Source: an uncultured Chthonomonadaceae bacterium
Lineage (GTDB): Bacteria > Armatimonadota > Chthonomonadetes > Chthonomonadales > Chthonomonadaceae
NCBI GenBank assembly: GCA_963835065.1
Contig: CAWIEK010000024.1
Span: 1 to 64,000 of the forward strand
Direction of reading: 5' to 3'
Length of the DNA: 64,000 nucleotides
Part shown: piece by piece, positions 3,302 through 61,592 of the stretch
Numbering within the stretch: the stretch's first letter is position 1
Layout of the letters: each line of letters begins with the position of its first letter
Notes under the pieces: generated by a model
Databases searched by the model: none
Seen by the model: the letters and a program-made list of their open reading frames with translations, nothing else
What the model was told of the DNA's origin: nothing
Translations under genes and position numbers: made by a program

Positions 3302-3427
3302 AGGCATTAGGCATTAGGCATTAGGCATCAGGAATTAGGCATTAGATATAGGGTATTGATCTTCTGTCTTTTCTTCTTCTCTTCTTCTTTTCTTCCCTAA
3401 TGCCTAATGCCTAATGCCTAATGCCTA
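3302..3427. repeat. Inverted heptamer arrays (AGGCATT)n ... (AATGCCT)n between hsdR and hsdM
   Basis: Read directly; pyrimidine-rich spacer between the arms. Confidence 0.95.
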
Positions 3428-5884
3428 CGTATAGAGCGCCGCCTGCAATTCGTGGACGGCGGTTTGGAAGGCGGCGGGGCCGCCGAATTGGGAGACAAGC
3501 TGCGTCACGCTGCCCATGCTGTTGAAGGGCGCGATGCGCAGTAACTGCAAATCGTCGAGTTTCATCACGCCCTGATCCTGATATTTGAGCAGGAGGGCTT
3601 CCAGTACGGCGCGAGCTTTGTCGCCGTAGCGGGTGAACACGTCGCGCTTGCGGACGCTTTCGGCCCGTTCACGCCGGGTGAGCGGGGGCCGGTCAAAAGC
3701 GACATGGCAGATCAAGTCGAACGGGTCCAGGTCCCGGCCTATTTCTTCCAACAGCGGGGCAAGCGGCAGGTCTTCGCGTTCCAGTTCTTCCAGAATGGCC
3801 TGCTTGCGCAGGGCGCCCTTCCAGCGGGTTAGAAAATCGTCCAGGCTGGCGAAGCGCTTGCGCAGGGCGCGTTTGGTAAAGTCGCGCAGGCTTTCCGTGA
3901 CCAGTTTGCCGTTTTCGTCCAGATACTCCACGCGCTCGGCAATGATTTGGGCGCTGATGCCGTCCACGTAGATTTTGCGGCGTTTCCCCACTCCGTCCGA
4001 GAGCAGGGAAATATCCGGCGTACCGCCATCCACAACGGTTTCCGCCCCCTCCTCGCCATAACCCGGCCTGTCTTCTTCGGTCGCTTCCGTTTCCTCTTCT
4101 TCTGAGGGCGTGATCGGGTCGTTTGCTCCCGGCTCGTAAATCTGCACGGGTTCGCCATCAAAATCGGGGTCGGCAAAGTGGTGGGTCGCGCCCCGGAAGT
4201 CAATCACGGTGAAATAGAATTTTTTCGTATCGTCGTGGATTCGGGTTCCCCGTCCCACGATCTGCTTGAACTCCGTTGTCGAGCCGACAGCGCGATCCAG
4301 CACGATCAGGCGGCAGGTTTGGGCATCCACGCCCGTTGACAGCAGGCGCGACGTGGTGACAAGCACAGGGTATTTGGATTCGGGATCAATGAAGTTTCCA
4401 AGCTGCGCCTGGCCTTCCTGGTCACTGCCCGTAATCCGCATCACGTACCTGTGGTTCTGCTGGTACAGGTCGGGGTTTTCGTTGATGAGCGCCTGCCTCA
4501 TGCGGGCCGCGTGTTCCTCATCCACGCAGAATACGATTGTCTTTTGAAACCGGTCGCCGCTGGCTTTCAAAAAGTCCGAGATTTTGCGGGCCACCAGTTT
4601 GGTGCGGGGGTCCAGAACAATGGTGCGGTCAAAATCCTTTTGGTTATAAATCCGGTCCTCGATCTCCTCGCCGTCGCGGTCTACAGTTCCCTGCACGGGC
4701 CGGTAGCCTTCCACATCCCGGTCAATGTGAACGCGCACCACTTTATAGGGCGCGAGAAAGCCGTCGCGGATGCCCTGTTTCAGTGAATAGGAATACACGG
4801 GCGGGCCGAAATAGCTGATGTTGGAAACGTAGCGGGTTTCTTTGGGCGTGGCGGTCAGGCCAATCTGCGTTGCGCCGGCAAAGTATTCCAGTATTTCGCG
4901 CCAGGCGGCGTCTTCCGCCGCGCTGCCCCGGTGACACTCATCAATCACAATCAAATCGAAAAAGCCGGGCGAAAACTCGCGGAACAGCTTTTGCCGCTCT
5001 TCCGGGCCGGTAATCGCCTGGTACAATCCCAGATAAACTTCATACGCGGTATCTACGCGGCGCTTGCGGTCGCTGTCTTTCGCTATCGCGGTGGGAAGCG
5101 ATACCTCAATGCCGTCGGGCCGCTCGATGGTTTTGGTATTGGCGCTCAGTTTCGCCATTGCCGCGCCGAAAGGCCGGAAGTCGTTTACCATCGTCTGGTC
5201 TATCAGCACGTTGCGGTCGGCAAGGAACAGAATTCGTTTTTTGCGCCCCGATTTCCACAAGCGCCAGAGTATCTGAAACGCCGTGTACGTTTTGCCGGTT
5301 CCCGTCGCCATGACCAGCAGAACGCGGTTCTGCCCTCTGGCAATGGCTTCCATGGTGGCGTTGATCGCGTTGACCTGGTAGTAGCGCGGCGTTTTGCCGC
5401 TTCCATCCTCATAGTAATCCTGAAGCACAATCGCTTCTTCTTCGGGCGCAAGGCCCTTCCAGGCGCGGTATTTGGCCCACAATTCGCCGGGGGAGGGAAA
5501 CTTGTCCAGGGGCAACGTTGTTTCCAGCAGCAGGCTTGTGCCCGTCCGGTCATGGAAAACAAAGCCGTCGCCGTTGGAAGCGAACACAAAGGGGATGTTG
5601 AGGGTATCGGCGTAATCCAGCGCCTGCTGCATCCCGTCGCCCAGGCTGTGCTTGTTGTCTTTGGCTTCAATCAGTGCGATGGGGATATTAGGCTTGATGT
5701 ACAGGATGTAATCGGCGCGTTTCTGTGTGCCCCGCGTGACCAGCTTGCCGCGCACCATGATGCGCCCGTTCGTGAAGCTGACTTCCTCGCGGATTTGCAG
5801 CATCTCATCCCACCCGGCCTGCTTCACGGCGGGCGTGATAAACTTGGCGCAGATGTCCCGTTCGCTGAGAGGCTTCTTGTCCAT
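3425..5884 (-). CDS. hsdR: Type I RM restriction subunit R (EcoAI/EcoEI-like)
   Basis: ADY...IEAK nuclease motif; ATGTGKT, DECH and QIVGRGTR helicase motifs. Confidence 0.97.
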   Translation of the reverse strand: MDKKPLSERDICAKFITPAVKQAGWDEMLQIREEVSFTNGRIMVRGKLVTRGTQKRADYILYIKPNIPIALIEAKDNKHSLGDGMQQALDYADTLNIPFVFASNGDGFVFHDRTGTSLLLETTLPLDKFPSPGELWAKYRAWKGLAPEEEAIVLQDYYEDGSGKTPRYYQVNAINATMEAIARGQNRVLLVMATGTGKTYTAFQILWRLWKSGRKKRILFLADRNVLIDQTMVNDFRPFGAAMAKLSANTKTIERPDGIEVSLPTAIAKDSDRKRRVDTAYEVYLGLYQAITGPEERQKLFREFSPGFFDLIVIDECHRGSAAEDAAWREILEYFAGATQIGLTATPKETRYVSNISYFGPPVYSYSLKQGIRDGFLAPYKVVRVHIDRDVEGYRPVQGTVDRDGEEIEDRIYNQKDFDRTIVLDPRTKLVARKISDFLKASGDRFQKTIVFCVDEEHAARMRQALINENPDLYQQNHRYVMRITGSDQEGQAQLGNFIDPESKYPVLVTTSRLLSTGVDAQTCRLIVLDRAVGSTTEFKQIVGRGTRIHDDTKKFYFTVIDFRGATHHFADPDFDGEPVQIYEPGANDPITPSEEEETEATEEDRPGYGEEGAETVVDGGTPDISLLSDGVGKRRKIYVDGISAQIIAERVEYLDENGKLVTESLRDFTKRALRKRFASLDDFLTRWKGALRKQAILEELEREDLPLAPLLEEIGRDLDPFDLICHVAFDRPPLTRRERAESVRKRDVFTRYGDKARAVLEALLLKYQDQGVMKLDDLQLLRIAPFNSMGSVTQLVSQFGGPAAFQTAVHELQAALYT

Positions 5885-13031: not shown

Positions 13032-13066
13032 GTAATGACTTTTAGGGCTTGCCGGTGGGACTAAGG

Positions 13067-13123
13067 AGTTGATAGTTGATAGTTCGTAGTTGATAGAGGT
13101 GGAGGAACTATCAACTATCAACT
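13067..13123. repeat. Inverted heptamer arrays (GTTGATA)n ... (TATCAAC)n
   Basis: Read directly. Confidence 0.9.
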
Positions 13124-32080: not shown

Positions 32081-32320
32081 GTGCAAACGCGAGTTCAAAA
32101 ATGGGGAAATAGTCTGGCAGTGCGTATTCCAAAATCCTTTGCGGCAGAAACGTCACTGGAGCAGGATACGCTTGTCGAGTTGTCAATGTTGGAGGGCAAG
32201 TTAGTCATTGCGCCCATCAAAACTCGGCCAACGCTCGAAGAGCGTATGGCGTCCGTTACAAAAGAAACGTTACATGGTGAAGTAGATTTCGGGCCGCCGA
32301 CAGGAAAGGAAGTTTGGTAA
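32081..32320 (+). CDS. mazE: AbrB/MazE antitoxin
   Basis: VQKWGNSLAVRIPK ... HGEVDFGPPTGKEVW. Confidence 0.93.
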   Translation: MQTRVQKWGNSLAVRIPKSFAAETSLEQDTLVELSMLEGKLVIAPIKTRPTLEERMASVTKETLHGEVDFGPPTGKEVW

Positions 32321-32321
32321 C

Positions 32322-32660
32322 GTGGCCTATATTCCTGAACGCGGCGATTTCATCTGGATTTCCTTCAATCCGCCGGCAGGACACGAGCAGGCAGGCCGCC
32401 GCCCCGCGCTTATATTGTCGCCGTCCGCTTATAATGGCGTCACCGGACTCGTCATTTGCTGCCCTGTTACCAGCCAGGTGAAAGGCTACACGTTTGAAGT
32501 TGCCATACCGGGGGGACTGGAAGTTTCCGGCGTGGTGTTGAGCGATCAGATAAGGAACCTTGATTGGGAGGCGCGGCAGGCGAGTTTTCTTTGCAAGGCT
32601 CCTAAAACGTTTGTGGACGAAGTGCTGATGAACCTCGGCGATTTGCTTACGGGGCCGTGA
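32322..32660 (+). CDS. mazF: MazF endoribonuclease toxin
   Basis: YIPERGD, GHEQAGRRPALILSP, CPVTSQVKGY and DQIRNLDW motifs. Confidence 0.95.
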   Translation: MAYIPERGDFIWISFNPPAGHEQAGRRPALILSPSAYNGVTGLVICCPVTSQVKGYTFEVAIPGGLEVSGVVLSDQIRNLDWEARQASFLCKAPKTFVDEVLMNLGDLLTGP

Positions 32661-34865: not shown

Positions 34866-34983
34866 CAGGGGTTGAAAACCCCTGTCTGGACAAAGCAAGC
34901 GTCTTTCAGACGCGCCCATGCTTTCTGGAAGTTGCGTCTGCAAGACGCTTGCCTTTTCCTGCCGGGTGTTTTCAACACGCGGA
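34866..34983. repeat. Bipartite REP-like doublet; related copies near 25319, 39597 and 54464
   Basis: GCGTCTGCAAGACGC-TTG-N7-GCCGGG..TTTTCAA..C.CGG present in both orientations. Confidence 0.8.
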
Positions 34984-35047: not shown

Positions 35048-35316
35048 GTGCAAACGCGCGTTCAAAAATGGGGAAACAGTCTGGCTGTGCGTATTCCGAA
35101 ATCCTTTGCGGCAGAAATGTCGTTGAAACACAATGCGCTTGTCGAGTTGTCAATGTTGGAGGGCAAGTTAGTCATTATGCCCATCAAAAACAGCCAACGC
35201 TTGAAGAGCGTATAGCATCCGTCATAAAAGAAACTTTGCATGGTGAAAAAGAAACAGAAAAAAAGAGCCAAGCAACGCGAAAAAAGCGAACCTTTTGCCC
35301 CACTGCCCTTGTCTAA
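35048..35316 (+). pseudogene. mazE: Orphan mazE paralog with a frameshift in the A-run at 35186-35190 and a replaced C-terminus
   Basis: Aligns by eye to 32081-32281 as far as LHGE; no mazF follows. Confidence 0.85.
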
Positions 35317-35400
35317 ATAGCACAAGTGTCTACTATACAGACACAAAGACTGAATGTTGGTAGTTCCTATCAACTATCAACTATCAGCTACTCACTCAGG

Positions 35401-35550
35401 AAGGAGGTACAGGCCCATGTCCCACCCCTCCCGTGCGCCCTGACGCTTACGAGGTCACGACGCCTCTCTCCTACAACCAGACACAACGAGACATCGGGCT
35501 GGAAGCGCTGCATTGCCAAGATTTCGACGCTGCCTCTACATACTCTTATC
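35401..35550 (+). other. Conserved element, copy 1: RBS, mini-ORF MSHPSRAP* and 115-nt core
   Basis: Core 35436-35550 matches 54621-54735 at 108 of 115 positions (hand alignment). Confidence 0.85.
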
Positions 35551-35738
35551 CTCTTGTCTGCTTATCCTTCATCCTTTGCTTGCGCCACTTCCCATTGGCA
35601 AAGGTTAAGAGCCTATTCGCAATAGGTTCCCCTTCCCCCAGGTTGCGTATTTCTGCTTCGCTTTGGAAATACGTTTTATGGGAGAAGGGGCAGGGGTTGA
35701 GAGCCAATTGAAACGGGAACTTGTTCTTTTACGAACCC

Positions 35739-37988
35739 TTACGGCTGCTTCGGTTTGGCGAAGATGGCGTTGTCTACGGGCGCGTTGACGGCCACATCCG
35801 TAAACTTCAGGTCAAGCAGCGTGGCCTTGCCCTGCGACACTTTCAGCGTACCGGGAACCTTCACGCCCTGTGAGGTTTTGTAATTGCCCATCAGCACGGT
35901 CACATCCGCTTTGGAGGTCGGCAGCACCATGCGCGACGCGAGGTTGGTCACAGGGTCAATATACACCCGCACATCCGCGCCCTTGTCCGTCGTGATGATA
36001 TAGCCCGTATCGCCGCTGTCACCGGACTTAGGCAGGGAGCGCACGGCGTAGTTGTTGGCGTAAGCGTCGCGCAGCAATTTGATGGGATTGAGCGCGCTGC
36101 CCAGACCGGCGGGCGGCGTTTGCGTTGCGCCCGCAACGGTCAGCCATTCCTCGCTGTTCCCGCCTGCCGTGCCGAACGAAATGGGAAAGGCCGAGGTCAG
36201 GTCGGCGCGTACCTTGTCGGGAGCCGCCAGCGTAAGCGTCAGGGATTCGATAGGAAGCGCGCCGGGGAATTGCCCTGTCGGATCGGTCAGTTCGCCCGAA
36301 CCTTTCAGCACCATGCTTTTCCAGTTCAGGAAAGCCGCGCCGCCGTGCGCCTTGATGGTAGCCGCCAGCCCCGTTTTCCCGGCTGCCATTTCCGCAGGCG
36401 TACCCTTCGCGCCCGTACCACTTCCCCCTGCACCACTCCCCCCTGTCCCCTGTCCCCTGTCCCCTGTCCCCTCTAACGTGGGCGAAAGCAGGTCTACACT
36501 CGCGGCAGGAATCACGCGCACCGTGCCGATGGCTTCCACGTCCTTGCGGATGGCTTTGGCGTCGCCGACAAGGACGATTTGGGGCGCGTTGAGATGCAGG
36601 CCGCGCATGATTTCGGGAACCTGACTGCCTGTAACCGCCTGAACGCGCTCGGCGTAATGTGTCAGGTCGCCCGGCCCATTGCCGTACAGCACGGCGGGAA
36701 CCAGCCGGGTTAAAACGCCGTTCGGGGTCGCCACGCTGACGGCAAATGAACCCTGCAAGAACGCTTTGCGATCCTGAAGTTCCTCGGCAGGCACTTCACC
36801 CATGCTGATTTTACGCGATTCTTCCAGCGCCAGTTTGACCACTTCGCCCGTCGAGGCGTTTTTGGTAAACGTAAAAATTTCAAACTCGCCCGCGTCCTTG
36901 TTGCGCCTGAAACCACTGCCCACGCCATACGTCAGGCCGCGCTTCACGCGAATTTCGCGGGTCAGGCGGCTGTCGAACTGTCCCAGGCCGAGAACCGCAG
37001 TGGCGACGGTTCCGGCAATGCGGTTCGGGTCGCTGTAACCGTTCGTCAGCGTACCGATACGCACTTCCGTTTGCGCGGCTCCCGGACGGTCCAGAATGGT
37101 AATCTGCGGCTTCGCCGTATCCGAAGGAGCGGTCATTCGCGCAGGCGGCGCGGGCGCGGCGGGAACGTCTTTCTTGTCCCAACTCCCAAACGCGGCCTGC
37201 GCTTTTTCCATTGCCTGCGCGGGCGTAATGTCGCCCACGAGGAACAGCGTGGATTGGTTGGGCGCAAAAAAAGTGTCGTGGAACTTCTGCGCGTCGTCAC
37301 GGGTCAGCGATTGCAGCGTTTGCGGCGTACCCTCGCTGTTGTTGCCATACGGGTGCGCGCCATACACCAGGCGAGACAGGGCCAGTTCCGCGATTGTGGC
37401 GGGCTGCGACAGAGATTGCGTCAATTCATTTATGGTTTGGCTGCGCGTCCTGTCCAATTCTTGTTGGGGGAACGAAGGACGCAGGGTGATGTCGGCAAGC
37501 AGGCTGAACAGGGTATCCGCGTAGGGGCTTAACCCGCTTGCCGAAACAGTCAGGTAATCGTCGTCCACGCCCGCGCCCAATGACGCGCCCAGGCCATCAA
37601 TCGTGTCGGCGATTTCCGTTTCGCTCCGGGTAGCCGTGCCCTTGTTGAGCAGGCGCGCGGTCATGGAAGCCAGCCCCACTTTGTCTTTCGGGTCCCGGAT
37701 GGAACCGGCGGGGATTGCCAGCCGCATCCATACGGCGGGCTGCGTATGGTCTTCCAGCACCACCAGTTTCAGGCCGTTGGGCAATGTCTGCTGCACGATT
37801 TTCGGCAATTGCAGGGCGCGTTCCTTGCCCAGCGGCGGCAATCCCGCCGCGCTTTTGGAAGCCTGCTGCGCGCCTGCGCCCGGCAGGACGGATAAGGAAA
37901 GCGTCAGGATCGCGCCCAAAGCAACCCCATTCAAGCCTGTGCGATTGCGCTGCCGGGGAGTATTGTTTATGTTGCGAAACCGGGTCAT
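35739..37988 (-). CDS. M16 peptidase non-catalytic subunit with an extra C-terminal beta domain
   Basis: LPNGL and SRLTREIRVKRGLTYG motifs, no HxxEH, signal peptide. Confidence 0.88.
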   Translation of the reverse strand: MTRFRNINNTPRQRNRTGLNGVALGAILTLSLSVLPGAGAQQASKSAAGLPPLGKERALQLPKIVQQTLPNGLKLVVLEDHTQPAVWMRLAIPAGSIRDPKDKVGLASMTARLLNKGTATRSETEIADTIDGLGASLGAGVDDDYLTVSASGLSPYADTLFSLLADITLRPSFPQQELDRTRSQTINELTQSLSQPATIAELALSRLVYGAHPYGNNSEGTPQTLQSLTRDDAQKFHDTFFAPNQSTLFLVGDITPAQAMEKAQAAFGSWDKKDVPAAPAPPARMTAPSDTAKPQITILDRPGAAQTEVRIGTLTNGYSDPNRIAGTVATAVLGLGQFDSRLTREIRVKRGLTYGVGSGFRRNKDAGEFEIFTFTKNASTGEVVKLALEESRKISMGEVPAEELQDRKAFLQGSFAVSVATPNGVLTRLVPAVLYGNGPGDLTHYAERVQAVTGSQVPEIMRGLHLNAPQIVLVGDAKAIRKDVEAIGTVRVIPAASVDLLSPTLEGTGDRGQGTGGSGAGGSGTGAKGTPAEMAAGKTGLAATIKAHGGAAFLNWKSMVLKGSGELTDPTGQFPGALPIESLTLTLAAPDKVRADLTSAFPISFGTAGGNSEEWLTVAGATQTPPAGLGSALNPIKLLRDAYANNYAVRSLPKSGDSGDTGYIITTDKGADVRVYIDPVTNLASRMVLPTSKADVTVLMGNYKTSQGVKVPGTLKVSQGKATLLDLKFTDVAVNAPVDNAIFAKPKQP

Positions 37989-39538: not shown

Positions 39539-39653
39539 AAGAATACTCTCCAATGTCAGGCCTCCTGCAGACGCCATTCTTTGTGTACAATGTTCCGCGT
39601 CCGCAGGACGCTTGACTTTTCCTGCCGGGTATTTTCAATACCGCAACGCCAAA

Positions 39654-41143: not shown

Positions 41144-41239
41144 AGAGATAAGAGATAAGAGATAAGAGATAAGAGGGTAAGAAACGGTATAAGATAGCAG
41201 CTATGAGACGCCTTTTCTCTTATCTCTTATCTCTTATCT
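41144..41239. repeat. Inverted hexamer arrays (AGAGATA-like / TTATCTC-like)
   Basis: Read directly between the two glycosyltransferase genes. Confidence 0.85.
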
Positions 41240-54231: not shown

Positions 54232-54515
54232 GTAGTCCGCGCAGGCGGACTTCGTAACCACAGCCGCGCAATTTATTGCACGGACGCTTGTAATTGGTAA
54301 CATAAAAGTTTGCACAACGCGGAAGCTTCTACCCTCACCGGGCGTCCACTTGTGGACACGGCCCCTCTCCCTGATTCGTCCGCAACGCGGACAGGGAGAG
54401 GGGAGCAAATGTGTTCACTTTGTGCGTTTTTATTAAGAGCCACTCCCAATAGGCGCGGCATTTGCGTCTGCAAGACGCTTGCACTTTCCTGCCGGGGATT
54501 TTCAATCCCCGGCCA
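54232..54515. repeat. Cluster of three REP-like families
   Basis: GTAGTCCGCGCAGGCGGACT; CCCCTCTCCCTG/CAGGGAGAGGGG; CCGGGGATTTTCAATCCCCGG. Confidence 0.7.
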
Positions 54516-54580
54516 GAAAAAGCTGCAACCTTTTTCCTCCACAAGTCGTCTGAATAAATGTACATGCGTCTACCATACAC

Positions 54581-54735
54581 AAAGGAGAACAGATGCCTAT
54601 GCTCTGCCTGCTCCCACTGCCGCCCTGACGCCGCTGAGGTCACGACGCCTCACTCTTACAACCAGACACAACGAGACATCGGGCTGGAAGCGCTGTATTG
54701 CCAAGATTTCGACGCTGCCTCTACATACTCTTATC
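54581..54735 (+). other. Conserved element, copy 2: RBS, mini-ORF MPMLCLLPLPP* and 115-nt core
   Basis: Core matches copy 1 (35436-35550) at 108 of 115 positions. Confidence 0.85.
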
Positions 54736-54773
54736 TTTATCTTTATCTTTTATCTTTATCTTATCCCTCATCC

Positions 54774-55457
54774 TTACCGATAATCGGGGCGAACGGCATA
54801 CGCAATCGGGTCTTCCAAGCCCGCGCGCTGGAAACCGCGCAGGCGCAGGGCGCAGCTGTCGCACACGCCGCAGGCCACATCCTGACTCTGGTAACAACTC
54901 CACGTCAGATGCAGCGGCGCGTTCAGTTCCAGCCCTTTGCGGATAATGTCTTCTTTGTTCAGATAAATAATCGGCGTTTCAATGCGAATGTCGCCCGCCG
55001 CCGTGCCAAGCCGTATCACTTCGTTGAACGCGGCGTAGTATTCCGGGCGGCAGTCGGGATAGCCGCTGCTGTCCTCATACACCACGCCGATGTACAGCCG
55101 TTTCGCGCCGCACACTTCCGCCCACGACACGCCCACGCTCAAAATATGCGCGTTGCGGAAGGGAACATACGACGTGGGTATCTCCTGATTGTCCAGATCG
55201 GCCTGCGTGACCGGCATACTCGCGTCCGTCAGGCTGCTGCCGCCAATCGCCGCAAGGTGCGCAATGGAGCAGGTCATCCGCCGCGCATGGGGAATCTGGT
55301 AAAAGTCGGCCAGTTCGTGGAACGCCTGCAATTCCCGCTGTTCCGTGCGCTGTCCATAATTCAAATGCAGAAAATTCAACTCGTGACCGTCTTCCCGCGC
55401 CAAAGCCGCCGTCACGCACGAGTCCATGCCGCCCGAAACCAGTACAATCGCCCGCAT
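54774..55457 (-). CDS. queC: 7-cyano-7-deazaguanine synthase
   Basis: SGGMDS, YVPFRN, GYPDCR and TWSCY...CGVCDSC motifs. Confidence 0.97.
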   Translation of the reverse strand: MRAIVLVSGGMDSCVTAALAREDGHELNFLHLNYGQRTEQRELQAFHELADFYQIPHARRMTCSIAHLAAIGGSSLTDASMPVTQADLDNQEIPTSYVPFRNAHILSVGVSWAEVCGAKRLYIGVVYEDSSGYPDCRPEYYAAFNEVIRLGTAAGDIRIETPIIYLNKEDIIRKGLELNAPLHLTWSCYQSQDVACGVCDSCALRLRGFQRAGLEDPIAYAVRPDYR

Positions 55458-55719
55458 AAGCCTTGCTCCTCGTAGTTTTTCACCACCAAGACGCCAAGAA
55501 CACCAAGAGAAAAGAGAAGAAGAGAAGAAGAGAAGAAGACATTTACCTATCAAACCTAACATATTCTTTTGCTTTGACTTACTTGGTGTTCTTGGCGTCT
55601 TGGTGGTGAATAGTTGTTCCTTCTCGTTCCTCAATTGCTGTAAACCACCATTTTACCGCGAAACTCCAAAACGATGTTGAGAAAATAAACGCGGATGGTT
55701 CGTATTCTTAGCAGGACAG

Positions 55720-56501: not shown

Positions 56502-56625
56502 GAGTAGTCAGTAGTCAGTAGTCAGTAGTCAGTAGAAAGCCCGCTCTCGTAAGGTTGTACTGACAGGTAAAGCCATAAGTAGACAGGAATTTCTACTGAC
56601 TACTGACTACTGACTACTGACTACT
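56502..56625. repeat. Inverted heptamer arrays (AGTAGTC)n ... (GACTACT)n
   Basis: Read directly between nuoA and nuoC. Confidence 0.95.
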
Positions 56626-56637
56626 TCTGAGGTACTC

Positions 56638-57351
56638 ATGGTTCAATCGCCTCCGCCACCCGCAGTGGAAACCGTTCCTGAGCGGCTGGAAGTGCAAAAA
56701 ATTCGCGCGCTGTTTCCCGACGCCATTCTGGACGTGAACCTGTTTCGCGGTGACACGCGCATTATGGTGCAGCGCCAGCACATCGTGGAAGTCTGCCGCC
56801 TTATGCGCGACGACCCGCAATTGCAATACAACTTCTTTGTGGAATGTCTCGGCGTAGACTATCTGGACTACCGCGACGACTACCGCTTTGAAGTGGTGTA
56901 CAACCTGTACTCGCTGCCCTGGGAAAAAGACGGCAAGCGCTACGGGCACAACACGCGCATTTTTCTGAAAGTGCCCGTGCCCGAAGAAGACGCAATTGTT
57001 CCGAGCGTGACAAGCATCTACCCCGGCGCGAACTTTCCCGAACGCGAAATTTTCGATATGTTCGGCGTCCGCTTTTCCGGGCATCCCGATTTGCGGCGGA
57101 TTTTAATGCCGGACGACTGGATCGGGAATCCACAGCGCAAGGATTACCCGCTCGGCGGCGAGCGCGTCCAATTTCCGGGCGGCAAGTACGGCCCGTCCGT
57201 TGCCGAAGTGCCCGTCCAGCACCCCGGCGAGTCCTTCTACGGCAAAACCGGCGACGAGCAGGGAGAAAAGTACGGTCACGTTCGCACCCCCACGCCGGAC
57301 AAAGGGCCGGGAACGCAGTTGCCGCCGGCGGGAGAACCGGGCAAGAGTTGA
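56638..57351 (+). CDS. nuoC: NADH-quinone oxidoreductase subunit C
   Basis: [24 protein letters not shown]...RKDYPL. Confidence 0.96.
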
Positions 57352-57476
57352 TAGTTGATGGTTGATAGTTGATAGGCAAGCACAGACAATATCTACCTTC
57401 GCCTTTCACCCATTTTACAAGCGGCACAAGCTACGCTGACAGGTCACTATCAACTAAAAACTATCAACTATCAACT
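57346..57476. repeat. Inverted heptamer arrays (GTTGATA)n ... (TATCAAC)n
   Basis: Read directly between nuoC and nuoD. Confidence 0.93.
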
Positions 57477-57494: not shown

Positions 57495-58739
57495 ATGGCT
57501 ATTGACGAAAAGCGTCTGAATGAATTAAATACCGAGTCCATGAACGCGCAGGGCATACAGGTTGACGCCCTTGACGACCAGACGATGGTAGTCAACATGG
57601 GGCCGCAGCATCCGAGTACGCACGGCGTTTTGCGCGTGGTTCTGGAACTCGACGGTGAGGTAATCGTCCGCGCCACGCCGCACATCGGGTATGTGCATAC
57701 CGGCATCGAAAAAGAATTGGAGTTCCAGACCTATCTGAAGGCGGTCACGCTGACAGACCGCATTGATTACGTGGCGTCCCTGCTGGAAAACGGCGCGTAC
57801 TCGCTGTCGGTTGAGAAACTGCTGGGCATTGAGATACCGCCGCGCGGGCAGGTATTGCGCGTGATGCTGATGGAACTGGAGCGCCTTGCCAGCCATCTCG
57901 TATGGCTCGGAACCCACATTCTCGATCTGGGAGCCATGACCGTCTTCTTCTACGCCTTCCAGCAGCGCGAAAAAATACTGGACTTGAAAGAGATGATTTC
58001 GGGCGTCCGCATGATGACCAGTTGGATCGTGCCGGGCGGTCTGCGCGGCGATGCCCCGGACGGGTGGCTTGCCCGCGCCAAAGACCTGGTGGACGATTTC
58101 CCCCGCGCAATGGATGAAATCGAAAACCTCTTGAGCGCCAACCCCATTTTCCGGGAGCGGACGCAGGGCGTGGGAACCATCAGCGTGGAAGACTGCCTTG
58201 CGCTTGGCGTGGCCGGCCCGACCCTGCGCGCGGCGGGCGTTCCTTACGACATCCGCAAAACGCAGCCTTACAGCGGCTACGAGCATTTCCGATTTTACGT
58301 GCCGACGGGAGAGTTCAGCGACGTTTACGACCGCTACCGCGTCCGCATGGCCGAAATGATGCAAAGCCGCGAAATCATCAAGCAGTGCATTGAAAACATG
58401 CCCACCGGCCCAATCAACAGCGATGACCGCAAAGTCGTGCCCCCGGCGCGGCAGGAACTCGACAACAGTATGGAAGCCGTCATCCACCACTTCAAGCTGT
58501 GGACGGAAGGCTTTCACCCGCCCGTTGGCGAAGCCTACGTACCCATCGAAAGCGGCAAGGGCGAAGCAGGGTACTACATTGTCAGCGACGGAACCAACCG
58601 CCCCTATCGCTGTCACCGCCGCCCCGCCAGTTTCATGAACTTGCAGGCGCTCTCGAAAATGTCCGAAGGCCGCCTGATCGCCGATGTGGTAGCCATCATC
58701 GGCAGCATTGATATTATTTTGGGTGAAATAGATCGGTAG
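57495..58739 (+). CDS. nuoD: NADH-quinone oxidoreductase subunit D
   Basis: NMGPQHPSTHGVLR; ends GEIDR. Confidence 0.97.
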   Translation: MAIDEKRLNELNTESMNAQGIQVDALDDQTMVVNMGPQHPSTHGVLRVVLELDGEVIVRATPHIGYVHTGIEKELEFQTYLKAVTLTDRIDYVASLLENGAYSLSVEKLLGIEIPPRGQVLRVMLMELERLASHLVWLGTHILDLGAMTVFFYAFQQREKILDLKEMISGVRMMTSWIVPGGLRGDAPDGWLARAKDLVDDFPRAMDEIENLLSANPIFRERTQGVGTISVEDCLALGVAGPTLRAAGVPYDIRKTQPYSGYEHFRFYVPTGEFSDVYDRYRVRMAEMMQSREIIKQCIENMPTGPINSDDRKVVPPARQELDNSMEAVIHHFKLWTEGFHPPVGEAYVPIESGKGEAGYYIVSDGTNRPYRCHRRPASFMNLQALSKMSEGRLIADVVAIIGSIDIILGEIDR

Positions 58740-58850
58740 GCATCAGGCATTAGGCATTAGGCATTAGGAAATGCCAAGTTCCTTTGTGCCAGTACAAGCA
58801 TATCAGCATCCGGGTAGTTCCTAATGCCTAATGCCTAATGCCTGATGCCT
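58737..58850. repeat. Inverted heptamer arrays (AGGCATT)n ... (AATGCCT)n
   Basis: Read directly between nuoD and nuoE; same unit as 3302-3427. Confidence 0.95.
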
Positions 58851-59526: not shown

Positions 59527-59988
59527 ATGAAGTCTACAGCAGATACTTACCATGATGCAGCGCAAGAACATTTGGTTACGGCTCAGGAGTTACACGAAGC
59601 AGGCAACTACTATCTATCTCACTATATTGCAGGATTAGCGGTAGAGTGCATGTTACGCGCTTTCTTACGCGCCGAAGATAAATTTGACGCGGATCATAAT
59701 CTGGCGCAGCTTGCTGAAAAAGCAAACTTTTATGAGTATATACCAACACATCAGTGGGAGCAATTCGCCGCGAAGTTTACGCAGATGAATGTGCGTTGGC
59801 GCAGCAATCATCGCTTTTTTGCGCAATCTGAGGTGAGGAGGTATCTGCGCTCTGTAGGCGCGGATGCAGGCGCAAAAGGCGACACCTTCAAGAACAATAG
59901 CCGTACCTTGTTAAATCTGGCTATCGAAGTGCTTAATCAGGGAGAAGCATCATGGCAAAAACGCAAGTCAGCTTCACAGAAGAAGTAG
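59527..59988 (+). CDS. HEPN-domain protein
   Basis: AQELHEAG..YLSHYIAGLAVECMLRA...HNL helical HEPN pattern. Confidence 0.7.
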   Translation: MKSTADTYHDAAQEHLVTAQELHEAGNYYLSHYIAGLAVECMLRAFLRAEDKFDADHNLAQLAEKANFYEYIPTHQWEQFAAKFTQMNVRWRSNHRFFAQSEVRRYLRSVGADAGAKGDTFKNNSRTLLNLAIEVLNQGEASWQKRKSASQKK

Positions 59989-60218
59989 AGCGCCTTCTTC
60001 GGGATCATTTTACAAACGCCAATGTTATCATAGGAATTAACCCCGGGGCGGAGCGTGTCAGCGGTCAACTGGTTACTCCTGACTTTATCGGCATGGAACA
60101 CATTGACCGTCAAAAAATGGTGCGTGATGTGTTGCGCAAAACGCTGAAGAAGAAAGCCGAAGGAGTGTCCATTATCCTCGCCTACACGCCGGACGAATAC
60201 GCGGCTATGTCGGCGTAA
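59952..60218 (+). CDS. Small BolA/MNT-like partner of the HEPN protein
   Basis: VTPDFIGMEHIDRQKMV...YTPDEY; overlaps the HEPN gene. Confidence 0.6.
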   Translation: MAKTQVSFTEEVERLLRDHFTNANVIIGINPGAERVSGQLVTPDFIGMEHIDRQKMVRDVLRKTLKKKAEGVSIILAYTPDEYAAMSA

Positions 60219-60257
60219 GCAACGCTAGAGTTGGAATTTCAGGCAGGAGTTGGTGTC

Positions 60258-61592
60258 ATGGCGGAATTGAATTTGTTGTTTAAGAACCGGAATGTGCCCG
60301 GTATTGAGAATATTGACGTTTATGAGGCGAACGGCGGCTATGCGGGGCTGAAAAAAGCCGTTGCAATGGAGCGGCAGGCCGTTATTGACGAAGTGAAAAC
60401 GTCCGGGCTGCGCGGGCGGGGCGGGGCGGGCTTCCCGACGTGGATCAAGTGGAACGGCCTGCCCAAAAACTACAACGCGCCGCATTATGTCATCTGCAAC
60501 GCGGATGAGGGCGAACCCGGCACGTACAAAGACCGCGAATTGATGCTGAAACTGGCGCATACGCTGGTCGAAGGCATGATTCTCGCGGGTTATGCCACGC
60601 ACAGCACAAAAGGCTATGTGTACATCCGGGGCGAGTACGTGCAGCCGGCCTGGCAGGTGCGCAAAGCCATAGATCAGGCGTATAAGGCCGGGTATCTGGG
60701 CAAAAATATCCTGGGCGTTGAGGGCTTCAACTTCGATCTGTACATTCAGATGGGCGCGGGCAGTTACGAGTGTGGCGAAGAGTCCGCGCTGATGAGCAGT
60801 CTGATGGGCGAGCGGGGCAACCCGCGTTTGAAATTCCCCCACGCGCCCCTGCCTACTGTGGAAGGCGTGTGGAAATCGCCCACGCTGATTAACAATGTCG
60901 AAACGTACTGCGCGGCAACGTGGATTCTCGCCAACGGCGGCGCGGAATACGCCAAATACGGCACGGAAAAAAGCAAGGGCAGCAAAGTGATGTCCGTATC
61001 CGGGCATGTCGCCCGTCCGGCAAATTACGAAATCGAGTTGGGAACGCCCCTGATGGAACTGCTGGACATGGCGGGCGGCGTCACGAACGGGCGCTTGAAA
61101 GCCGTGATACCGGGCGGCTCCTCGGTGCAGATTATGACCGCAGAGCAGTGCCAAAAGATCAATCTGGATTACGAAAGCTGCGCGGCGAACGGCACATTGC
61201 TTGGTTCAGGCGGCTTCATGGCGTTCAACGACCTGACCGACATTCCCCTGCTGATGAAGCGCACGGCGGAATTTTACATGCACGAATCTTGCGGCAAATG
61301 TACGCCCTGCCGCGAAGGAACGCGCTGGATTTACAAAATTCTGGATCGCGTCACATCGGGAGCCGGGCGCGACGGCGACATTGACCTTCTGCTGGATGTG
61401 TGCAGCCAGATTGACGGACGCTCGTACTGCGGTCTGGGCGACGCCGCCGCGTGGCCGATTGTCGGAGCCATCAAAGTATTCCGCCCCGAATTCGAGTATT
61501 GGATTAAAAACAAAAAATCGCCCGTCGGCCCGCGCCACGTTCCCCCAACGCCCGAAGTGGTCAACCCGCTGCTGATGCTGACGGCAGTGTAG
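60258..61592 (+). CDS. nuoF: NADH-quinone oxidoreductase subunit F
   Basis: SGLRGRGGAGFP, NADEGEPG, YECGEESAL and ESCGKCTPCREG motifs. Confidence 0.97.
   Translation: MAELNLLFKNRNVPGIENIDVYEANGGYAGLKKAVAMERQAVIDEVKTSGLRGRGGAGFPTWIKWNGLPKNYNAPHYVICNADEGEPGTYKDRELMLKLAHTLVEGMILAGYATHSTKGYVYIRGEYVQPAWQVRKAIDQAYKAGYLGKNILGVEGFNFDLYIQMGAGSYECGEESALMSSLMGERGNPRLKFPHAPLPTVEGVWKSPTLINNVETYCAATWILANGGAEYAKYGTEKSKGSKVMSVSGHVARPANYEIELGTPLMELLDMAGGVTNGRLKAVIPGGSSVQIMTAEQCQKINLDYESCAANGTLLGSGGFMAFNDLTDIPLLMKRTAEFYMHESCGKCTPCREGTRWIYKILDRVTSGAGRDGDIDLLLDVCSQIDGRSYCGLGDAAAWPIVGAIKVFRPEFEYWIKNKKSPVGPRHVPPTPEVVNPLLMLTAV

Follow-up and report, generated by a model that had tools for sequence, protein, structure and literature searches.

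In bacterial SECIS and other stop-plus-spacer signals, an RNA structure lies at a fixed distance 3' of the stop codon in the A site. Among stand-alone small RNAs, MicA and RybB depend on ECF sigma factors, and Qrr and CsrB/C are multicopy. Glu-Pro-stop stalls termination and leads to A-site cleavage, according to the cited part of bioRxiv 2021.08.16.456513, and RxPP, where x is S, A, G or P, also stalls, with RAPP alone being insufficient for stable arrest in the material cited from PMC7897499. For R-x-P-stop itself, no test was found in the covered portions of the arrest-peptide literature. A stalled ribosome gives a toeprint 16 nt from the P site (PMC13410324, cited in part), and stalled ribosomes or Shine–Dalgarno (SD)-like sites near 5' ends change mRNA fate (PMC7509114, likewise).

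We analyzed a 64,000-nt stretch of DNA (the window) from an uncultured Chthonomonadaceae bacterium (assembly GCA_963835065.1, contig CAWIEK010000024.1, positions 1 to 64,000). The window's own assembly, G000, comprises 8.0 Mb in 71 contigs and is 92% complete; G001 and G002 are two genomes of the same genus. The initial annotation had described a two-copy duplication, with near-identical segments at 35436–35550 and 54621–54735. Re-alignment confirmed that these match at 108/115 positions, but the core is present in 162 rather than two G000 copies (blastn, 80–100% identity). An nhmmer profile search of G000 recovered the same 162 copies at E<1e-5, plus one weak extra. At least 47 copies were found in G002 and 13 in G001, and the element is thus seen in 3/3 genomes of the genus. 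The family set used below holds 192 copies: all 162 from G000, 20 of the at least 47 from G002, and 10/13 from G001. The 162 copies in G000 are evenly spaced, and conservation extends jointly over their promoter motif, ribosome-binding site, proline-stop mini-frame and core. The order, 5' to 3', is A-tract, bipartite motif, second hexamer, spacer, SD, mini-ORF, 7 nt, hairpin 1, A/C linker, hairpin 2 and pyrimidine tail. In the two window copies these features, and one neighboring remnant, lie as follows.

35246..35287, + strand: copy 1, A-tract upstream of the promoter motif (sequence; common to most copies)
35288..35316, + strand: copy 1, putative ECF-type bipartite promoter motif GAACCT-N17-GTCTAA (genome motif matches)
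35328..35333, + strand: copy 1, second –10-like hexamer GTCTAC (recurs across copies)
35361..35396, + strand: copy 1, variable 5' spacer with CTATCAA micro-repeats (–10-to-core distance 60–161 nt across copies)
35401..35407, + strand: copy 1, Shine–Dalgarno site AAGGAG (sequence)
35417..35443, + strand: copy 1, mini-ORF MSHPSRAP-stop (family in frame in 184/192)
35444..35450, + strand: copy 1, 7-nt spacer, fixed in length and variable in sequence (7 nt in 187/192)
35451..35466, + strand: copy 1, predicted hairpin 1, 5 bp with a 6-nt loop (paired in the alignment of 51 copies, A2)
35467..35487, + strand: copy 1, A/C-rich linker, its length differing by a few nt (copy comparison)
35488..35536, + strand: copy 1, hairpin 2, long and irregular, an alignment-based prediction (weak in copy 1 alone)
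35504..35518, + strand: copy 1, invariant apex AGCGCTGYATTGCCA (exact in 162/162)
35537..35580, + strand: copy 1, ACATA and pyrimidine tail, likely 3' end (copy comparison)
35728..35741, + strand: remnant resembling an ISAzo13-family element end, near copy 1 (sequence)
54525..54553, + strand: copy 2, promoter variant GCAACC-N17-GTCTGA (same variant in the G002 ortholog)
54568..54587, + strand: copy 2, second hexamer GTCTAC (from 54568) and Shine–Dalgarno site (54582–54587) (sequence)
54593..54628, + strand: copy 2, mini-ORF MPMLCLLPLPP-stop (MLCLLPLPP in the G002 ortholog)
54636..54651, + strand: copy 2, predicted hairpin 1 (sequence)
54673..54721, + strand: copy 2, predicted hairpin 2, apex at 54689–54703 (sequence)
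54722..54773, + strand: copy 2, pyrimidine tail reaching the convergent queC stop (sequence)

The A-tract of copy 1 (35246..35287) is presumably UP-element-like, and the halves of the bipartite motif begin at 35288 (GAACCT) and 35311 (GTCTAA). Several features had been recognized in the initial annotation. The AAGGAG ribosome-binding site was indeed located in both copies (35401–35407 and 54582–54587), MSHPSRAP (35417–35443) and MPMLCLLPLPP (54593–54628) do both end in CCC-TGA, and the GAGGT/GCCTC hairpin maps to 35451–35466. The tandem ACAAC(C/G)AGAC occurs in the window copies but is not kept across the family. In copy 2, a second in-frame TGA lies two codons past the first. Elsewhere in the window, an intact mazE-mazF-like pair occupies 32081–32660. 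A second mazE copy, 3 kb from the first (35048–35245; 89% over 159 nt), has a frameshift and breaks off at the start of copy 1 of the element. Intergenic hairpins with 7-nt micro-repeats of various kinds in both arms lie at 3302–3428, 13062–13123, 41146–41239, 56503–56625, 57343–57476 and 58736–58850.

Among the genomes searched, the element is known from one genus only. A blastn survey was positive in 3/41 genomes. A model (R1) run across the order was positive in 3/68, the 65 others being without the element. A second model (R2), run on a phylum sample, was positive in 1/151, namely G000 itself; here the best 22–51 candidates per genome were scored, and weak homologues can escape. Promoter plus leader patterns, searched in the family, were found in 2/42 genomes, and no viral contig searched had the element. 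The apex pattern occurs at 34 or more loci of the genome collection, with 30 in Chthonomonadaceae among the matches listed. The four loci outside this family, among the at least 34 listed, match in the apex only and were set aside, as were two metagenome matches (a first search gave none) that were likewise apex-only and due to chance. No Rfam 15 covariance model matched the window at gathering score, and none matched the core at E≤10. In the literature covered on Armatimonadetes noncoding RNA, many-copy structured RNAs, MITE cargo and even spacing, mostly main texts of open papers, the element is undescribed.

A delocalized retron ncRNA was also considered and rejected. Each of the three genomes of the genus encodes a type XIII retron reverse transcriptase (RT), assigned by family features given in the cited parts of PMC7736814 and PMC13712802. 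Across the order, however, 4 of the 7/68 genomes with this RT are without the element, and msr-msd-like units belonging to the RT lie ahead of its operon. The gap before the RT is not conserved; in each of the three genus genomes it holds a different micro-repeat hairpin. The operon itself (RT_XIII, SWIM_XIII) stands behind msr-msd-like units arranged in tandem, of which G000 has three, G001 two and G020 one, with units at L181:4212-5022 (– strand; G000 C50, about 59711-60521), at L178:8110-8840 and, in L182, upstream of the operon. These units share a 5' part and have different long hairpins, as in a small ncRNA array with differing msd arms. Two further observations concern G000: an RT of the CRISPR-associated type, standing alone, with a Cas1-like ORF behind it (L168:4457-6450; C49:681456-683452), and a 16S rRNA match of 1696 nt against a 1533-position model (L137; C51:119419-121114), which suggests an insertion of ∼160 nt.

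The promoter motif sets the element apart from the rest of the genome. A strict form, GAA(A/C)C(C/T)-N16/17-GTCTAA, is present in 143/162 G000 copies, with a spacer of 16 or 17 in 138, and a relaxed form in 153/162 copies versus 94/1000 control windows. The strict consensus has 151 matches in G000 (9 in a reversed-genome control). Because 136 of these lie upstream of a copy, the motif is almost private to the element, which accounts for 90% of its matches. We take a bipartite AAC/CGTC-type motif with a 16–17 nt spacer to be the ECF promoter consensus. Mapped ECF26 promoters carry a CGTCT –10 (PMC6180224, in the part cited). Judged by its letters, the element's motif looks like the ECF type, with a presumed sigma factor responding to a presumed signal. 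Genes of the sigma70 family are not enriched as neighbors: 5/57 (9%) have a copy within 2 kb, compared to 7% among all genes. Past the motif, a second GTCTAC-like hexamer is found in 143 of the 146 copies that have the motif, 16–20 nt beyond the start of the first hexamer in 138/146. It is this second hexamer, beginning at 35328 and 54568, that had been annotated as the –10-like sequence GTCTAC(T/C)ATACA. The sequence is there, but the bipartite motif lies upstream of it; the second hexamer may act as a sigma-dependent pause site. In 8/15 divergent loci compared, the upstream bipartite motif is a different one, CTAAA-N13/14-GTTAAT, which we take to be sigma28-like, and five G001 copies have a third upstream type. 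Hence, within the genus, the same leader and core sit behind three different upstream types.

Sequencing runs gave a hint of expression. Six of seven RNA or probable-RNA runs yielded one short contig (157–524 nt) on the core, from related copies, and the remaining run (X2) yielded none. The hint is weak, because the runs were chosen for holding the stretch, the contigs come without strand or ends, and DNA of a 162-copy repeat could look alike. The small word shares in these runs are uninformative on habitat.

Behind the SD, a mini-ORF start codon in frame with the stop was called in 155/162 G000, 20/20 G002 and 9/10 G001 copies, a total of 184/192 against about one third expected by chance. 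Start calling was heuristic, and four G001 copies start with GTG, CTG or TTG. Lengths are 8, 9, 10, 11, 15 and 16 codons. The last codon is proline in 192/192 copies (CCC in 159, CCT in 19, CCG in 10, CCA in 4). Residue –2 is Ser, Pro or Ala throughout, and residue –3 is Arg in 177/192, by way of four codons, Leu in 9 and His in 6. Among the 162 G000 copies, the C-termini are RSP (119), RPP (27), HPP (6), RAP (5) and LPP (5). Stop codons vary as well, with TGA in 172 of the 192 copies, TAA in 19 and TAG in 1. The spacer from stop to hairpin 1 is 7 nt in 187/192, in 34 sequence variants among 162 copies, and hairpin 1 starts 13 nt past the first base of the proline codon. Since residue, stop and distance are conserved while the letters vary, these comparisons indicate that the mini-ORF is under selection on its frame and last three residues. 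The earlier remark that Pro-stop ends stalling leaders agrees with the family data; CCC-UGA itself is not needed. The only copies closer than 8 kb are an identical pair 1092 bp apart (L045; G000 C30:36965 and 38057), both without the promoter motif and with ATT for ATG.

Downstream of the mini-ORF, RNAalifold on A2 predicted hairpin 1 and a long irregular hairpin 2. In A2, 89.8% of cells are paired, compared to 41–51% for slid partners, and 0/500 shuffles reach 89.8%. Hairpin 1 is paired in 100% of A2 cells, with one pair occurring as A-U, U-A and C-G, and it is intact in 160/162 G000 copies. Five pairs show two-sided change, which is not above shuffles (46/500; 332/500 in a second test); the changes come from few lineages, and the copies are related. 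Folding of the window copies does not surpass that of shuffles (z +0.9 to +1.5), and their minimum-energy folds are without most of hairpin 2; only a G001 copy folds as drawn (z –1.5). A mutual-information scan, in which one subfamily dominates, detected no pairs beyond the helices. We regard hairpin 1 as a secure prediction and hairpin 2, weak in G000, as a probable one. The 15-nt apex is exact in 162/162 G000 copies and in 35/35 divergent copies. One copy (L122; G002 C14:637827-637979) has its 5' half replaced by another repeat, with the apex and 3' arm remaining. A novel structured RNA, the third option of the initial annotation, fits these family data.

We propose that the element is a translated, ribosome-pausing leader on a stand-alone structured RNA, a reading to which we give about an even chance. 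Transcription would begin a short way past GTCTAA under an ECF sigma factor, giving a stress-induced RNA of 200–300 nt. A ribosome would then translate the 8–16 codons of the mini-ORF and, with Pro-tRNA in the P site and a stop in the A site, would be slow to release. Hairpin 1, lying roughly at the ribosome's leading edge (13 nt past the first base of the proline codon), may reinforce this pause. The paused ribosome would guard the RNA against 5'-3' decay and keep the invariant apex, 71–75 nt from the stop, available to a putative binding factor. We infer pause and protection from the Pro-stop literature, the position of hairpin 1 at 13 nt and the RNase J gene encoded in G000. Copies would spread as ISAs1-type MITE cargo, as seen for 11 of them, then lose the shell and be kept, and cores would be homogenized within a genome, presumably by gene conversion. 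Gene conversion can mimic core conservation, which counts against this explanation, as do the weak folds of the window copies, a number of two-sided changes not above shuffles, the insufficiency of RAPP by itself and the restriction of the family to one genus among the genomes searched. One copy lies directly after, and facing, the RNase J gene (G000 C53:218943-220715), probably by chance among 162.

The same anatomy could serve a different end, in which the ribosome itself is the target. Under stress, RNA from 160 copies would trap ribosomes just before termination, together with tRNA-Pro and release factor, so as to stockpile them or to slow translation, and the apex would contact the ribosome or a hibernation factor. 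We consider this rather unlikely. The stop-to-apex distance held at 71–75 nt and the almost private promoter motif are in keeping with it, yet the longest complementarity of the element to the rRNA operon is 9 nt and G001 has only 13 copies. In addition, tmRNA, which is expected to clear Pro-stop stalls, is encoded. The idea draws support from TnaC, whose arrested ribosomes hold tRNA-Pro: over-expression depletes that tRNA and slows growth, according to the cited part of PMC11890864.

To what extent is the element simply transposon cargo? In G000, CAGGGC...GCCCTG terminal repeats occur as 11 pairs, each with a copy between them, in shells of 453–653 bp, and by this measure 11/162 copies qualify as ISAs1-type MITEs. 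Target duplications are 10/10 in five shells, 9/10 in two and ≤7/10 in four. The same terminal repeat bounds ISAs1 transposase elements in G002; the transposase (PF13808) was found in that genome but not in G000 (92% complete) or G001. Within about 700 nt of the window copies there are no paired ISAs1-type ends. By the terms of the initial annotation, its reading would fail if the unit proved to be the end of a known IS or MITE, and this is half the case. Eleven copies do sit inside ISAs1-type shells, but as cargo rather than as an end, and neither window copy is among them. In 10 aligned shells, identity is 94–96% in hairpin 2, 88–91% in the SD and ORF, and 74–83% in most of the upstream shell, with one block at 90%. 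Other copies, including copy 1, lie near ISAzo13-like ends. G000 also has two 1363-bp ISAzo13-family elements (L059, C41:162052; L060, C53:451923), and 14 short shells of 80–93 bp have ISAzo13-family ends and TTA/TAA-type flanks.

Comparison of orthologous sites gives some history. In G002, though not in G001, an ortholog of copy 2 follows queC and shares its promoter variant, with MLCLLPLPP as the mini-ORF; neither relative carries the element at the copy 1 site. Directly past the apex, 153/162 G000 copies read AG, as against 2/32 G002 loci, and the G002 ortholog of copy 2 carries G002-type core letters. Such genome-specific letters, present even in an ortholog, point to gene conversion. One could accordingly suppose that the element is selfish or neutral, multiplied with its shells, and that conversion alone keeps the core alike. 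The 11 shells with terminal inverted repeats and 9–10/10 target duplications in 7 of them, the shared ends of full ISAs1 elements in G002, the empty copy 1 sites and the genome-specific core variant all favor this, and MITEs with promoters, ORFs and sRNAs are known (PMC10969869, in the part cited). We nonetheless think it unlikely. Conversion does not account for the retention of one frame through six ORF lengths and four start codons, and it leaves unexplained the synonymous wobble, the spacer of fixed length and variable sequence, and the presence of one core behind three upstream types. Moreover, the ends of QMITE1 are better conserved than its middle, as described in the cited section of PMC10969869, and here the reverse holds.

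The copies are placed unusually evenly. Only 4/105 gaps are shorter than 10 kb, compared to about 27 (26.6 ± 4.2 and 26.8 ± 4.1) expected for random intergenic placement (0/1000 trials), whereas two control repeats, of 158 and 101 copies, show random or clustered placement (z +1.8 and +2.9). The ∼158-copy control family, randomly spaced, occurs in the window at 34927–34982, 39590–39645 and 54457–54512. Close pairs (<20 kb) are few in both orientations, 7 direct and 12 inverted. On 6672 G000 genes called with a hexamer model, the downstream gene is on the opposite strand in 101/161 copies, and no shared family accounts for more than 7 of about 320 neighbors. Between tandem genes, 60 copies point against the direction of the genes and 22 along it (p=3e-5), which would be expected if a sense promoter or terminator is harmful. 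Measured against GC skew, replication strand bias is nil (31:31). The depletion of short gaps, set against the controls, and the scarcity of both kinds of close pair would suit a locally acting chromosome element, each copy serving 20–50 kb, for instance as a transcription–translation anchor or a domain boundary, with a nearby second copy not kept. Still, target immunity or recombination between near-identical copies of 110–150 nt could also thin close pairs, and the control repeats are shorter than the element. Considering further the lack of strand bias, an assembly in 71 contigs and a relative, G001, that manages with 13 copies, we find a local chromosome role distinctly unlikely.

The apex raises the question of tRNA mimicry. 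It matches G000 tRNA-Gly(GCC) from D-stem to anticodon loop at 13/15 positions, ungapped, a score equaled by 2/1000 shuffles and 8/1000 random 15-mers. As a mimic or relic of this tRNA, it might act as a decoy, occupying a toxin that cuts tRNA or a protein that binds it. But this was one of several comparisons, uncorrected; a 48-nt local alignment is not significant (23/300), and the bases 3' of the loop cannot make the anticodon stem. The resemblance, seen in sequence, is a lead only, and the decoy reading is very unlikely.

Coding readings of the downstream region fare worst. The stop-to-apex distance (71–75 nt) is off frame in 49/192 copies through linker indels, and all three downstream frames contain stops: 53 of 192 copies in +1, 117 in 0 and 126 in –1. 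The initial annotation had noted that the +1 frame is open, which is true of both window copies (ORFs 35433–35711 and 54558–55475) but not of those 53. It had also noted a TTG-started, 31-aa hydrophobic peptide at 35513–35608; this exists in copy 1 and is not kept across the family. With proline and stop codons that wobble and no downstream frame kept, both a type I toxin and recoding, two of the options first raised, are rejected. A type I toxin-antitoxin mRNA with this TTG-started peptide as toxin is highly improbable: copy 1 encodes a leucine-rich version and the TTG is invariant in copies, but the leucines derive from the T/C tail, no SD precedes the TTG, and the frame gives ≤6 aa in 64/162 G000 copies and a short hydrophobic peptide in only 12/192. 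A recoded small gene, using a +1 shift at CCC-UGA, readthrough or selenocysteine, is hardly credible even with a +1 frame open in 139/192 copies, a hairpin close behind the stop and an encoded tRNA-Sec, given that CCT, CCG and CCA occur with TAA or TAG and thus leave no fixed codon pair, and given the stops in every frame and the frame-shifting linker indels. ARAGORN called the tRNA-Sec (G000 C1:196596-196693) and also a 96-nt tRNA with anticodon TTA, which reads TAA (C42:1858-1953); the latter may be a false call.

The paused-leader reading can be placed among known systems. The element resembles bacterial SECIS and recoding signals in having a structure at fixed distance 3' of a stop, but it tolerates TAA or TAG as the stop and has no conserved downstream frame. 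With MicA/RybB, Qrr and CsrB/C it shares an alternative-sigma promoter motif, a predicted stand-alone small transcript and redundancy. It differs from them in having one to two orders of magnitude more copies, a leader predicted to be translated, and a T tract without a classical terminator hairpin immediately ahead of it. Ribosome-based 5' stabilizers, such as the ermC leader, hbs and SD-like sites blocking RNase J1 (PMC7509114), are similar in that a 5'-proximal ribosome could shield the RNA, RNase J being encoded; the cases in the cited part of that source protect mRNA, whereas the downstream part of the element is non-coding.

Arrest leaders are closer. TnaC, PepNL, ApdA/ApdP/ApcA (RAPP/RAPG), synthetic RxPP and Glu-Pro-stop, as presented in the cited parts of PMC11890864, PMC7897499 and bioRxiv 2021.08.16.456513, likewise combine a short ORF and a strong SD with a conserved C-terminal R-x-P or P-P before the arrest codon. 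Unlike them, the element has no regulated downstream gene (opposite strand in 101/161, no common family), a hairpin at fixed distance and a conserved RNA domain after the stop, 162 copies, and a peptide of mostly only 8–9 aa. Prokaryotic MITEs, including Correia and the Coxiella QMITE1 with Cbsr3 and Cbsr13 (PMC10969869, in part), share the non-autonomous shell, terminal inverted repeats, target duplication, internal promoter and tens to hundreds of intergenic copies. In contrast, only 11/162 copies of the element have paired ends, its cargo shows higher conservation than the shell and is also retained in its absence, its promoter motif is of ECF and not of sigma70 type, its mini-ORF appears to be under peptide-level selection, and its copies are evenly spaced.

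Taken together, the architecture appears to be new, resembling an arrest leader joined to an sRNA and traveling like MITE cargo. We tentatively raise, as a doubtful proposition, that it represents a new class of RNA gene: a single RNA, in ∼160 evenly placed copies, would make up almost the entire regulon of one ECF sigma factor, with a ribosome loaded and held at proline-stop as platform for the apex, and would form a ribosome-capture system that acts locally across the whole chromosome and was domesticated from transposon cargo. Should the paused-leader reading hold, it would be a new use of ribosome stalling and a recent host takeover of transposon cargo. The family offers about 200 natural variants of an 8-residue stalling candidate, and cell-free testing is possible without culturing the organism. 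Arrest peptides described so far control the gene that follows, and the MITE-borne sRNAs on record are without a selected frame; the element joins both, with no downstream gene.
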